NCBI GenBank assembly: GCA_015059485.1
Contig: SVAH01000005.1
Span: 621-64,620 of the forward strand
Direction of reading: 5' to 3'
Length of the DNA stretch: 64,000 nt
Origin: Bacillota bacterium
GTDB lineage: Bacteria > Bacillota_I > Bacilli_A > RF39 > UBA660
In this document: one piece after another, positions 41,694 to 45,350 of the stretch
Numbering within the stretch: position 1 is the first letter of the stretch
Layout of the letters: each line of letters starts with the position of its first letter
Made by a program: the position numbers and the translations under genes
The notes under the pieces: model-generated
Databases searched by the model: none
Told to the model about the DNA's origin: nothing
What the model saw: the letters and a program-made list of their open reading frames with translations, nothing else

Positions 41694-43409
41694 ATGAAAA
41701 GTTTAAAAGCGTTCATACCCCTTTGGAGATTCATTAAAAAAGAAAAAGGAAAATTTATAATTGCCACTATTTTAGTGTTTATATCTTCAATAAGCTTTTT
41801 ATTTATTGGATACTTAAATGGTGCAGCCATTGAGTCAATAACAAAATTGAACTTAAAAAGAGCTTTGTTATTATTATCAGCATATTTATTTGTTGAAGTA
41901 GTTTTAGATTTACTATGTTCAAGAATGTCATCAAGAATATTACAAAGAATAGAAAATAGAGTGTCTCGTGAACTTAGTTATGAAACATATACTAAATGTT
42001 TAAATTTACCAGCATATGCTTATGAAAAAAAGTCATCTGGTGAAATTATTAATAGAATTACAAGTGATAGTGAGAGTTTATCATTTACATTTGGTAGAGT
42101 AATAAATATTGTTACATATTTATTTGGTACAGTAATTTTATTCTTTTATATATGTTATAACTCATGGATTATAGGTGTATTAATTGTAATATTTGTATGT
42201 TTAATTGCACTTGTAATGAAACATTATAATCCAATTGTAAAAAAGACACATAAAGCACGTAAAGATAGTCAAGATAAATTTATATCAATTACTAATGAAT
42301 CAATAAGGGGTATAAGAGAAATAAAGACATTAGGTATAAAACCTAATTTATTATCAGAAACTAGAAAAGTAATAAAAGAAATATTAGAAAAAAGTTATGA
42401 AGAAACAAGTTATAATATTAGATATCGTATATCAACGGGTATACTTAGAATGTTACTTGAAGTATCAACATTTATGACCTGTGCAATACTTATGTATTAT
42501 GGAAAAATAAATTTAACTTTCTTTATAGCTATGACGTATTACATTTATAGATATACATGGTTAATGGAAGAAATAAGTGATTTTTCAGAAAGTTATCAAA
42601 AACTAATTGTTTCACTTGAAAGAGTTAATGAAATAATAGAAAATAAATTATTTGAAGATGAAAAATTTGGTAAAGAATCATTAAAAGATGTAAAAGGAGT
42701 TGTAGAATTTAAAAATGTAAATTTTGCCTATCCAGGTGAAAAAAATATACTTAAGAATTTTAATTTGGTACTAGAGCCAAATAAGAAAATCGCAATAGTT
42801 GGAAAAAGTGGTCAGGGTAAATCAACAATATTTAATTTATTAACAAGAGTGTTTGATTGTAAAAAAGGTGAAATTACTTTAGATGGAGTAAATATTCAAG
42901 ATTTGACTGAAGAAAATTTACGAAAACATATTTCAATAATTAGACAGGAACCATTTATATTTAATAGAAGTATTAAAGAAAATTTTAAAATAGTAAATGA
43001 AAAAATAAGATTAAATGAAATAAAAAAATATACACAAATGGCTTATTTAGATGACTATATAATGAGTTTACCTAAAAAGTATGACACTGTTTTAGGTGAA
43101 GGTGGAGTTAATCTATCCGGAGGACAAAAACAAAGACTTTCAATTGCCAGAACACTTGCTAAAGGAAGTAAGGTTATTTTATTTGATGAAGCAACATCAG
43201 CACTTGATAATTCATCACAAGAATATGTTAAAGAAACTATAGATAAACTTGTAAAAGATCACACTGTAATAGTAGTTGCACACAGGTTATCAACAATTAT
43301 AGATGCGGACATTATTCATGTTATTGATGGAGGAAAAGTTATTGCATCTGGAACTCATGAAGAATTATTAAAAACATGTGAAACTTATAAGAAGTTATAT
43401 AATGCTTAA
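41694..43409 (+). CDS. ABC exporter, fused permease and ATPase; paralog of 21501..23261
   Basis: GKSGQGKS, LSGGQ and ILFDEATSALD; GGAGG SD. Confidence 0.93.
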   Translation: MKSLKAFIPLWRFIKKEKGKFIIATILVFISSISFLFIGYLNGAAIESITKLNLKRALLLLSAYLFVEVVLDLLCSRMSSRILQRIENRVSRELSYETYTKCLNLPAYAYEKKSSGEIINRITSDSESLSFTFGRVINIVTYLFGTVILFFYICYNSWIIGVLIVIFVCLIALVMKHYNPIVKKTHKARKDSQDKFISITNESIRGIREIKTLGIKPNLLSETRKVIKEILEKSYEETSYNIRYRISTGILRMLLEVSTFMTCAILMYYGKINLTFFIAMTYYIYRYTWLMEEISDFSESYQKLIVSLERVNEIIENKLFEDEKFGKESLKDVKGVVEFKNVNFAYPGEKNILKNFNLVLEPNKKIAIVGKSGQGKSTIFNLLTRVFDCKKGEITLDGVNIQDLTEENLRKHISIIRQEPFIFNRSIKENFKIVNEKIRLNEIKKYTQMAYLDDYIMSLPKKYDTVLGEGGVNLSGGQKQRLSIARTLAKGSKVILFDEATSALDNSSQEYVKETIDKLVKDHTVIVVAHRLSTIIDADIIHVIDGGKVIASGTHEELLKTCETYKKLYNA

Positions 43410-43428: not shown

Positions 43429-43461
43429 AAAAACGTTCGCAAAATTTGTCGAACGTTTTTT
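43429..43461 (+). terminator. intrinsic terminator
   Basis: AAAACGTTCG-N10-CGAACGTTTT plus T tract. Confidence 0.85.
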
Positions 43462-43579
43462 ATTTAATTAACTTAGTATAAACAATTGAGAAAAGGAGAA
43501 AAAGCACACCACCACAAAAAAACTTATGAGGGACCCGAGTTTTGGGGGCTTTGTAAGAAAAATTGCGGAGGTGGTAATA

Positions 43580-43660
43580 ATGAGTAAGAAAGATTTTTTA
43601 ATCGGACTTCTTTTTGTTATTATTTTTATATTACTTGCCTTAGTGTTTAAGTTAATATAA
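43580..43660 (+). CDS. 26-aa hydrophobic peptide, putative type I toxin (MSKKDFLIGLLFVIIFILLALVFKLI)
   Basis: GGAGGTGG SD; single TM; ORF conserved in the second copy with synonymous and conservative changes; absent from the supplied ORF track. Confidence 0.85.
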   Translation: MSKKDFLIGLLFVIIFILLALVFKLI

Positions 43661-43740
43661 AAAGAAGCTTTCATTCTGAATGAATGAAAGCACAAATCTT
43701 TAAAGGTGAGTGCATGTCCAGAGGATATGTTTTCTCACTT
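43659..43740 (-). ncRNA. putative antisense antitoxin RNA (copy 1)
   Basis: minus-strand TTGATA(43775-70)-N17-TG-ext TATTAT(43752-47); 10-bp hairpin 43667-91 followed by TTCTTTTT. Confidence 0.72.
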
Positions 43741-43845
43741 AAATAGATAATAACATATTAGTAGATAAATATCAATTAATATAATTATGCTTTAAATATT
43801 GTATTTATTTTGTTATAATACAAACTTAATTGGTGGTGAAATAAT

Positions 43846-44949
43846 ATGGCAACTAAAATTGATTTATATACAAAATATGATCAGCCATTGTTTTTAAAAG
43901 AAGAAAAAATAAAAAAAATGAAAGAACAATTAGAATATATTATATCAATTTCTGATATGAATTCTTTAGATTTTGCAAAAAATGCATTATTTAGTGAAGA
44001 AATAAAAGCAAATAATTTAGTTGAAAATTATAAAGATGACATCGAATATATTGATGATGTTGTAAAAGAAAACAAAAGAAGAAAAAATGCAGAAGATGAA
44101 AAAGCACAAAGAATTTTAAATTTATTTAATGGTTATAAATATATTCTTGGTTCAAGTGAAATAACAAAAGATAATCTAAAAAAATTATATAATATATTAT
44201 CTAGACATTTATTAGGTGATTATGATTTAGAACATATGGGTGAATACTATAGAAATGAAATGGTATATATTTATACATCAGATAATGTTGCAAAGGCACC
44301 AGATGAAGGAATGGATACTAAAAAAGTTGATAGATGTATGAATTTATTACTTGAATATATTAATACTGATAATCATTTAGATTGTTTTACTGACTATTAT
44401 ATAAAGTCACAAATAGTTCATTATTATTTTGTATACGTACATCCATATTTTGATGTTAATGGAAGAACAAGTAGAACTTTAGCTATTTGGTATTTACTTA
44501 ATAATATGATTTATCCATATATTATATTTAATCGTGGTATAACATATGATAAAAATAAATATTATAAATGTATATCTAATGCTAAAAGAGGTGGAAACAT
44601 AACATTATTTATTGAGTATATGCTAGAAAATGTAAAAAATGAATTAATAAAAGAATATGGAATAATGGAAATAGAAAAAGAAAGAGAACTTACGAATTTA
44701 GAACGTCAATGTATTAATTATATAATGTCTATGAATGGAAATATGACAACAATAGATTTTGCTACAACATACAATAGATTTAATGATAAGAGAAAAAATA
44801 GTGACATAATTAATAATGTTATAAATCCATTAATTGAAAAAGAAATAATTATTCCTGGTAGACCTACTAAAAAACAAGGTAATTATTTCTTTAATTTAAA
44901 TGAAGAAATGTTAGAAGATTATAATGCTTTGACAAGGAAGTTGAAATAA
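43846..44949 (+). CDS. Fic family protein with C-terminal HTH-like region
   Basis: HPYFDVNGRTSR Fic motif (Gly to Val at position 6). Confidence 0.92.
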   Translation: MATKIDLYTKYDQPLFLKEEKIKKMKEQLEYIISISDMNSLDFAKNALFSEEIKANNLVENYKDDIEYIDDVVKENKRRKNAEDEKAQRILNLFNGYKYILGSSEITKDNLKKLYNILSRHLLGDYDLEHMGEYYRNEMVYIYTSDNVAKAPDEGMDTKKVDRCMNLLLEYINTDNHLDCFTDYYIKSQIVHYYFVYVHPYFDVNGRTSRTLAIWYLLNNMIYPYIIFNRGITYDKNKYYKCISNAKRGGNITLFIEYMLENVKNELIKEYGIMEIEKERELTNLERQCINYIMSMNGNMTTIDFATTYNRFNDKRKNSDIINNVINPLIEKEIIIPGRPTKKQGNYFFNLNEEMLEDYNALTRKLK

Positions 44950-45105
44950 ATCGTTCGCAAAATTTGTCGAACGATTTTTGTTTACAATTAAGTAATAGAT
45001 AATTATTATAAATACTTGAGAAAAGGAAAAAAAGCACACCACCACAAGAAACTTATATGGGACTTTAGTTCAGGGGGTTATAAGACAATTGTGGAGGTGG
45101 TAGTA

Positions 45106-45186
45106 ATGAGTAAGAAAGATTTTCTAATTGGACTTCTTATTATTATAATTTTTATATTACTAGTAATAATACTTAAGTTAATATAA
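45106..45186 (+). CDS. 26-aa hydrophobic peptide, putative type I toxin (MSKKDFLIGLLIIIIFILLVIILKLI)
   Basis: TTTACA(44981)-N17-TATTAT(45004) promoter and GGAGGTGG SD; paralog of 43580..43660. Confidence 0.85.
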   Translation: MSKKDFLIGLLIIIIFILLVIILKLI

Positions 45187-45267
45187 AAAGAAGCTTTCAT
45201 TCTGAATGAATGAAAGCACAACATCAATTGGTGAGGTGCATGTCCCTAGGAATGCCTTTTCTCACTT
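45185..45267 (-). ncRNA. putative antisense antitoxin RNA (copy 2)
   Basis: minus-strand TTGTCA(45302-297)-N17-TG-ext TATTAT(45279-74); hairpin 45193-217 plus TTCTTTTT. Confidence 0.72.
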
Positions 45268-45295
45268 AAATAAATAATAACATAAAAAAAATTAC

Positions 45296-45326
45296 TTGAC
45301 AAGTATACTTGGGGGGGGGGTAAAAT
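45296..45326 (+). promoter_or_regulatory. sigma-A promoter with a G10 homopolymer in the spacer (phase-variable candidate)
   Basis: TTGACA(45296-301)-AGTATACTT-G10(45311-20)-TAAAAT(45321-26); spacer is 19 bp. Confidence 0.8.
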
Positions 45327-45350
45327 AAGCTTAAGAATAGAGGAATGTAT

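Follow-up and report, generated by a model that had tools for sequence, protein, structure and literature searches.

Layout of the two repeats in the window

The window analysed here is a stretch of 64,000 nucleotides (nt) from contig SVAH01000005.1, which belongs to a metagenome-assembled genome (MAG) of a Bacillota bacterium (GenBank assembly GCA_015059485.1). It contains two co-linear repeats, copy 1 (43429-43775) and copy 2 (44948-45302), each of which forms one candidate type I toxin-antitoxin module. The plus strand of the module carries a short open reading frame (ORF) for a membrane peptide, preceded by a Shine-Dalgarno (SD) sequence and by an anti-SD sequence that is complementary to it; one predicted antisense RNA converges on the ORF from the minus strand. 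Copy 1 lies behind an ABC-transporter gene, and copy 2 lies behind a Fic gene (43846-44949). When the two repeats were aligned, the mean column identity was 86%, and copy 1 showed a 12-column gap at the site of the copy 2 toxin -35 element. The features of the two copies are as follows; the basis of each assignment is given in brackets, and lengths of helices are in base pairs (bp).

43429-43461, plus strand: copy 1 hairpin behind the ABC-transporter gene, with an A run on its 5' side and a T run on its 3' side (sequence)
43445-43453, plus strand: copy 1 Spo0A-box-like site TTTGTCGAA inside the upstream hairpin (motif position)
43477-43482, plus strand: copy 1 toxin promoter, -10 element TATAAA, without a good -35 (sequence)
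43487-43496, plus strand: copy 1 predicted mRNA 5' end TGAGAAAAGG (sequence)
43508-43517, plus strand: copy 1 anti-SD ACCACCACAA (pairing with the SD in the minimum-energy and centroid folds; cognate duplex -12.1 kcal/mol)
43567-43574, plus strand: copy 1 SD GGAGGTGG (mean unpaired probability 0.24)
43580-43660, plus strand: copy 1 ORF, encoding the 26-residue peptide MSKKDFLIGLLFVIIFILLALVFKLI (peptide profile, E = 1.3e-11)
43657-43742, minus strand: copy 1 predicted antisense RNA of ~86 nt, with a 5' GUGAG/CUCAC hairpin (fold z = -3.65)
43691-43667, minus strand: copy 1 antisense terminator, a 10-bp stem plus TTCTTTTT; the hairpin is followed by UUCUUUUU (terminator scan)
43730-43737, plus strand: copy 1 3' arm TTTTCTCA of the end-to-end helix, 8 bp, partner 43487-43494 (sequence; helix 1)
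43747-43775, minus strand: copy 1 antisense promoter TTGATA-N17-(TGT)TATTAT (consensus scan)
44948-44980, plus strand: copy 2 hairpin behind the Fic gene (sequence)
44963-44971, plus strand: copy 2 Spo0A-box-like site TTTGTCGAA inside the upstream hairpin (motif position)
44981-45009, plus strand: copy 2 toxin promoter TTTACA-N17-TATTAT (consensus scan)
45017-45026, plus strand: copy 2 predicted mRNA 5' end TGAGAAAAGG (sequence)
45037-45046, plus strand: copy 2 anti-SD ACCACCACAA (pairing with the SD in the fold; cognate duplex -16.0 kcal/mol)
45093-45100, plus strand: copy 2 SD GGAGGTGG (mean unpaired probability 0.12)
45106-45186, plus strand: copy 2 ORF, encoding the 26-residue peptide MSKKDFLIGLLIIIIFILLVIILKLI (peptide profile)
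45183-45268, minus strand: copy 2 predicted antisense RNA of ~86 nt (fold z = -2.80)
45217-45193, minus strand: copy 2 antisense terminator, a 10-bp stem plus TTCTTTTT; the hairpin is followed by UUCUUUUU (terminator scan)
45255-45264, plus strand: copy 2 3' arm CCTTTTCTCA of the end-to-end helix, 10/10 bp, partner 45017-45026 (sequence; minimum-energy fold)
45274-45302, minus strand: copy 2 antisense promoter TTGTCA-N17-(TGT)TATTAT (consensus scan)

A first-pass annotation of this DNA had described most of these elements, and its description holds at the level of sequence. It had placed one 26-residue ORF with a strong SD in each repeat, and GGAGGTGG is indeed located 5 nt upstream of each ATG. 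The anti-SD ACCACCACAA, for which complementarity to the SD had been claimed, pairs with it at both sites in the minimum-energy folds; the claimed downstream complement of the transcript 5' end matches at 10 of 10 positions in copy 2 and at 8 of 8 in copy 1. The signals of the convergent promoter (TTGATA or TTGTCA, N17 and TATTAT with upstream TG) and of the 10-bp terminator hairpin are present, and so are the reported stem changes between the copies (AAAACG/CGTTTT versus AAATCG/CGATTT and CTTATG/TGTAAG versus CTTATA/TATAAG).

Distribution of the module

The host MAG is 1.41 Mb in size, with a GC content of 25.6% and a completeness of 74%. We searched it with nhmmer profiles of the 5' untranslated region (UTR) and of the 3' UTR, which were run separately. 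Both profiles matched the identical 12 loci and no orphan arm was found; the genome contains 12 complete modules, of which the window repeats are two. Four types of peptide are encoded by these modules: MSKKDFLIGLL..KLI and MNKDTRLFLQ.. (four copies each), MKKDTRET.. and MKKDTKDT.. (two copies each).

The family extends well beyond the host genome. With the profile of the 12 peptides, matches were obtained in 64 of 151 genomes, representing 63 of the 150 genera of the same GTDB family; together with the 12 modules of the host, this bears out the multicopy distribution that the first-pass annotation had named as support for its reading. Across 300 sampled genomes of the class, the peptide profile gave six matches at E ≤ 1e-5, every one of them within the same GTDB family. 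One wider contig search with the motif M[SN]KKDFLI matched more than 598 stretches, and tblastn confirmed two.

In addition to the complete modules, the host genome contains the leftover 3' half of a type-A ORF (the type of the window copies) at C13:19348-19406, which has neither start codon nor 5' UTR; this remnant is evidence that a module can decay. The 10-mer TATAATGCTT is located immediately upstream of each window repeat, at 43398-43407 and 44920-44929, where it encodes the final codons of the ABC-transporter gene and near-terminal codons of the Fic gene. The Fic gene may have arrived together with the duplication of the module.

The peptide family

The window peptide is 26 residues in length. 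It starts with M-x-K-K-D-F-L-I, has a short basic N-terminus (MSKKD) and one predicted transmembrane helix, and ends with KLI. Throughout the family, the ORFs are 26-35 codons in size and encode one transmembrane helix. Among 41 distinct coding sequences from many genera, K3, K4, D5 and L11 are invariant despite synonymous codon changes: the lysines are encoded by AAG or AAA, and L11 is encoded by TTA, CTT, CTA or TTG. As invariant residues are encoded by varying synonymous codons, the ORF is under selection as a protein, in agreement with the ORF conservation that had likewise been named as a supporting sign.

Comparison of the module peptides with Pfam, NCBIfam, PHROG and PDB gave no family match (in Pfam and NCBIfam, only noise at E ≤ 10). 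None of the peptide models of Fst, Hok, Ldr, Ibs and TisB was among the matches at E ≤ 10, and the Hol_Tox (PF16935) and PepG1/SprG profiles did not match the module peptides. As a positive control, one 33-residue peptide of the same genome, MSIDILMLLFQGGLFLITLLTLIVILIEKNSKK (C24:4111-4212), matched both PF16935 (2.1e-9) and PepG1 (8.4e-5). A tblastn search of phage and plasmid collections with the peptides produced no match, of which the low-complexity filter may be the cause. Full-text search of the papers available to us found no mention of the MSKKDFLI motif or its variants, and the Rfam covariance models, those of the antitoxin RNAs RNAII, Sok, Rdl, Sib and IstR included, gave no match for any module variant (E ≤ 1-10). 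With no peptide match in Pfam, NCBIfam, PHROG or PDB and no RNA match in Rfam, the earlier suggestion of a possibly new peptide family stands. Judged by these searches, the family is uncatalogued, and all of its detected members come from a single GTDB family of uncultured gut Bacilli.

Two other loci of small peptides were noticed in the host genome. The control peptide MSIDILMLLFQGGLFLITLLTLIVILIEKNSKK at C24:4111-4212 is a second candidate type I toxin of the genome, from the known Hol_Tox family. At C25:38584-38807, there are two neighbouring tiny ORFs for transmembrane peptides of 28 and 36 residues, which resemble YjcZ-like sporulation peptides by eye only.

Predicted structure of the toxin mRNA

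The predicted mRNAs of the two window copies are highly structured, with fold z values of -5.67 and -5.69; none of 200 shuffles was equally stable. In the minimum-energy fold of copy 2, the end-to-end helix, the anti-SD/SD helix and the stop-codon hairpin are all present.

For the analysis of covariation, we took 26 modules of the genus, which come from five species, joined their 5' and 3' UTRs into one alignment and counted the pairs directly. In this set, 89.5% of the helix cells are paired, compared to 40-45% in a control with the partners slid by 1-3 columns. Compensatory changes were observed at 16 pairs, versus 9.1 ± 2.1 in shuffles. The covariation score is 0.239, versus 0.153 ± 0.007 for the shuffled alignments, and none of 500 shuffles scored as high. 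The covarying stems on which the earlier reading had also leaned are thus present, and variants of the SD are accompanied by matching anti-SDs.

Two long-range helices stand out. Helix 1 is formed by the first nucleotides of the mRNA (GAGAAGC...) and ...GCTTCTC, which is located ~240 nt downstream; in the four type-A copies of the genome, it contains AAAAGG/CCTTTT, AGCGG/CCGCT or AGAGG/CCTCT. Helix 2, GATGCTTGCCAC/GTGGCAAGCATC, overlaps the anti-SD and is weak in the window type-A modules. Both helices are 90-91% paired and carry compensatory changes. The sequence of the stop-codon hairpin varies between the types and its pairing is kept (96%). One third long-range helix, GGGAC/GTCCC, was considered; it is only 71% paired and crosses helix 2, and we do not rely on it. 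Mismatches read on the plus strand are G-U in 55 cases and A-C in 29; as G-U exceeds A-C, pairing in the mRNA is favoured to a modest degree.

The module of the host genome on C35 (B4) and locus L080 of G004 differ at the 5' end, which is GATGGTC and not GAGAAGC. These two modules come from different species and encode different peptide types, and the end-to-end helix is weakened in both. The GATGGTC leader may be a recurrent variant.

Pairing between the anti-SD and the SD is also specific. Across eight SD classes, the mean energy of the cognate anti-SD/SD duplex is -15.6 kcal/mol, versus -9.5 ± 3.3 kcal/mol for non-cognate combinations; there is one ninth class, ACCGCC/GGCGGT. In other genera the sequences differ (5' GGAACATTTAATA...), yet 17 of 18 folded modules show pairing between the first 15 nt and the last 45 nt, through different covarying sequences. 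A U run follows the end pairing in these genera, which gives the module a terminal hairpin plus U run of its own.

When the 3' UTR is masked, the SD is predicted to become less accessible in several paralogues; examples are drops from 0.25 to 0.01 and 0.75 to 0.06. We also considered a switch model, with the SD and the 3' UTR as alternative partners of the anti-SD; for the window type-A copies, this model is unsupported by the masking test.

The predicted antisense gene

One minus-strand promoter of the form TTGnnn, exactly 17 nt, TGn and TAnnnT was found in 25 of the 26 modules. It is located 6-8 nt before GTGAGAA, and the sequences of its spacer differ among the modules. Between 43300 and 45450, only two terminator-like sites exist, compared to a shuffle expectation of 0.3 ± 0.5; both are on the minus strand and adjoin the stop codons. 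Between the antisense promoter and its terminator lies nothing but the 3' UTR, with the 3' arm at one end and the stop codon at the other. The predicted antisense RNA spans the 3' strands of helix 1 and helix 2. Like the mRNA, the antisense RNA starts with a GAGAAGC-like sequence, because it is complementary to the 3' UTR, which in turn pairs with the 5' end of the mRNA. The genome encodes RNase III.

Comparison with known type I systems

The closest known design is that of bsrG/SR4, from the SPbeta prophage of Bacillus subtilis (Jahn and Brantl 2013, PMC3834814). In the bsrG mRNA, helix P1 forms between nt 1-35 and nt 232-262, and SR4 is complementary to the 3' half of this helix; upon binding of SR4, the 5' part of bsrG becomes single-stranded, the SD helix is extended from 4 to 8 bp, and RNase III cuts the duplex (PMC3834814). 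Like bsrG, the module has a highly structured mRNA of similar length (296 nt for bsrG, ~255 nt or more for the module), its SD lies in a short GC-rich helix, and its 5' end is connected with the 3' region by a long helix, to whose 3' strand a convergent antisense RNA is complementary. Extension of the SD helix by the antisense RNA is predicted for some paralogues, but not for the window copies.

Several features separate the module from bsrG/SR4. The module peptide is unrelated to BsrG by profile search and is 26 residues in length, compared to 38 for BsrG. The module antisense is ~86 nt in length and ends at the toxin stop codon, whereas SR4 is 183 nt. Different from the single prophage copy of bsrG, the 12 modules are located on the chromosome between housekeeping genes, and in this genus no toxin-mRNA terminator follows the helix.

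The module also has features in common with the other Gram-positive type I systems txpA/RatA, bsrE/SR5, bsrH/as-bsrH and yonT/SR6. In these systems, 4-5 GC pairs sequester the ribosome-binding site and the toxins, 29-59 residues in size, have one transmembrane helix (PMC6562991); the complementarity is 100-140 bp (PMC6562991), compared to ~85 bp in the module. Type I antitoxins of B. subtilis bind the 3' ends of their toxin mRNAs and promote decay, mostly via RNase III where studied (PMC6562991).

With hok/sok of plasmid R1 and aapA1/IsoA1 of Helicobacter pylori, the module shares a 5'-3' long-distance interaction, which would keep its full-length mRNA inert as it does theirs, and a sequestered SD. 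In those two systems, the antisense RNA is directed at the 5' leader or the ORF start, and 3' processing activates the mRNA (PMC6733600, PMC9841398); in contrast, the module antisense targets the 3' UTR, and neither a mok-like leader ORF nor a Hok_Gef match was found. Like fst/RNAII, the par locus of pAD1 from Enterococcus faecalis, the module has convergent predicted RNAs, a small antisense RNA among them, and a 5' structure that would limit toxin translation. The fst/RNAII RNAs, however, interact through direct repeats at their 5' ends and have a bidirectional terminator in common, and Fst is charged at its C-terminal tail, whereas the module peptide is charged at the N-terminus.

Interpretation and proposed mechanism

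The ORF is conserved, the helices covary, and the promoter and terminator of the predicted antisense gene are kept; on this basis, each repeat is probably a candidate type I toxin-antitoxin module built like bsrG/SR4. The type I-like reading of the first-pass annotation is supported as a candidate by this comparative evidence, while the architecture that it had emphasised is not new, with bsrG/SR4 as its closest known counterpart. By its sequence, the peptide family is a strong candidate for a new one and not a sequence member of bsrG/SR4. We infer that both RNAs are transcribed, that the peptide is toxic and that the antisense RNA neutralises it.

In the proposed mechanism, one sigma-A-type promoter would produce an mRNA of at least 255 nt encoding the 26-residue peptide. 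Pairing of the upstream anti-SD with the strong SD would keep this mRNA quiet, and pairing of its first ~10 nt with the region ~240 nt downstream would close the molecule, to which helix 2 would add a second layer in the paralogues. Transcription from the convergent extended -10 promoter would give an antisense RNA of ~86 nt that ends at the hairpin plus U run at the toxin stop codon; it would be fully complementary to the 3' UTR and with it to the 3' strands of the closing helices. The antisense RNA would invade the 3' UTR, giving a duplex of ~85 bp that would be cleaved by RNase III and lead to decay of the mRNA; in some paralogues, the displaced 5' arm would lock the SD more tightly.

Several observations weigh against this interpretation. 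In this genus, no plus-strand terminator was found between the 3' arm and the next gene; the 3' end of the mRNA is therefore undefined, and read-through into the downstream gene is possible. Copy 1 is the less convincing of the two window copies in two respects: its minimum-energy fold has a local GUGAG/CUCAC hairpin in place of the 8-bp end-to-end pairing, and its toxin promoter is weak, without a good -35. Compensation within inverted repeats could also act at the level of DNA, given that the G-U excess is modest and the copies are related. For the window copies, the predicted accessibility of the SD is unchanged by masking of the 3' UTR (0.24 to 0.24 and 0.12 to 0.12), so that, in their case, support is limited to the decay branch of the bsrG/SR4 mechanism. 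In addition, it is unclear how the SD would be freed for translation.

The Spo0A box and a possible role other than toxicity

The TGTCGAA core of the Spo0A box (PMC3485338) abuts the toxin -35 at a fixed position in 23 of the 26 genus-level modules, and the other three differ by one base. In the host genome, TTTGTCGAA occurs at 28 sites; nine of them are at modules and two more are upstream of spo0A, which is present at C12:23600-23911 (138 bits), with the TTTGTCGAA copies at C12:24424 and C12:24454. Spo0A may thus have a role at the toxin promoter, as judged from these motif positions. A LexA (Cheo) box was also considered for the upstream hairpin and discarded on inspection by eye, as its half-sites are wrongly ordered (GTTC...GAAC) and spaced by 12 nt.

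The boxes at the toxin promoters and at spo0A itself favour an alternative, in which the peptide is a regulated small membrane protein and not a toxin, for example with a sporulation role or as the partner of a larger membrane protein, and the RNA elements only tune its level. Selection on the peptide sequence fits such a protein too, and toxicity is so far only inferred. Outside the genus, however, the box was found in only 2 of 24 modules; being mostly absent there, it is not intrinsic to the family. Moreover, the genome carries 12 diversified paralogues in ~1.4 Mb, each with an occluded strong SD and an antisense gene of its own. Type I toxins typically show this combination, which would be unusual for a small membrane protein with another function. 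Taken together, we regard the small-membrane-protein explanation as unlikely.

Putative phase-variable promoters downstream

Runs of seven or more G residues occur 11 times in the host genome, all in the spacer of a promoter of the form TTGACA-N9-G(7-11)-TA(A/T)AAT. The window example is at 45296-45340, and other loci include C3:7470, C4:40986, C5:35993 and C25:62096; the G-tract lengths at the 11 promoters are 7, 7, 9, 10 (seven times) and 11. Downstream of 10 of the 11 promoters, the ribosome-binding site and the context of the start codon are identical; these promoters therefore front one paralogous gene family, and the sampled genes start with a signal peptide. By sequence, the poly-G promoters look like a multigene phase-variation system.

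The module and these promoters are physically linked. Seven of the 12 modules are directly upstream of a gene of the poly-G family. In copy 2, the antisense -35 (TTGTCA, minus strand) and the poly-G -35 (TTGACA, plus strand) are the two strands of one palindrome, CTTGACAAG, at 45296-45304 of the window; the shared palindrome is also present in the genome copies A4, B2, B3 and C4 and in locus L090 of G001. The antisense promoter and the poly-G promoter may be mutually exclusive.

Such linkage raises the possibility that the module serves as a 5' regulatory leader for the phase-variable surface-protein genes that follow it: transcripts from the upstream promoter would continue across the small ORF into the next gene, and the antisense RNA would control this read-through. 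The seven modules that precede this one signal-peptide gene family, with no plus-strand terminator between, and the palindrome shared by the two -35 elements in several copies would both fit. Yet five modules, including window copy 1, keep all their parts without standing before that gene family, and five poly-G-type promoters stand without a module. The hairpin and U run that end the modules of other genera, and the selection on the peptide, also argue against a leader, and we consider this explanation very unlikely.

A miniature mobile element, with the 5' and 3' arms as terminal inverted repeats for a transposase and an incidental ORF, is scarcely credible: the modules are multicopy and dispersed between housekeeping genes, and the 5' arm and the antisense side have GAGAAGC and GATGCTTGCCAC in common in inverted orientation, but conservation reaches ~70 nt past the 5' arm and into the downstream promoter, so that the unit does not stop at its arms. 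Conservation also holds for the ORF, for both promoters and for the pairing of SD and anti-SD, and the mismatches favour plus-strand G-U; the reading of the arms as transposon ends was rejected on these grounds.

For the type I module, one joint model would connect the two kinds of promoter: the toxin promoter would respond to Spo0A via the 0A box, and, in the several copies with a shared -35, RNA polymerase at a poly-G promoter in the ON state would exclude transcription of the antitoxin. This model is quite unlikely in our estimation. If it were true, the onset of sporulation and the ON/OFF state of the individual surface-protein genes would both set the balance of toxin and antitoxin, and the modules would be part of the control of cell fate.

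Significance

Type I systems are hard to find, as their peptides are tiny, are missed by gene callers and diverge fast; the T1TAdb and Rfam catalogues cover mainly cultured model organisms (PMC8594479). The 12 loci of the host genome and their relatives merit annotation. Their natural variants provide a ready series of compensatory mutations for the 5'-3' helix and for the anti-SD/SD pair. With about a dozen copies per genome of 1-1.4 Mb across a large family of uncultured gut Bacilli, the modules would extend the bsrG/SR4 design, in which an end-to-end helix is combined with an antisense RNA resembling the 5' end of the mRNA, well beyond Bacillus prophages. If the connections to Spo0A and to phase-variable promoters are real, they would point to a function in the cell, something that most chromosomal type I systems still lack.

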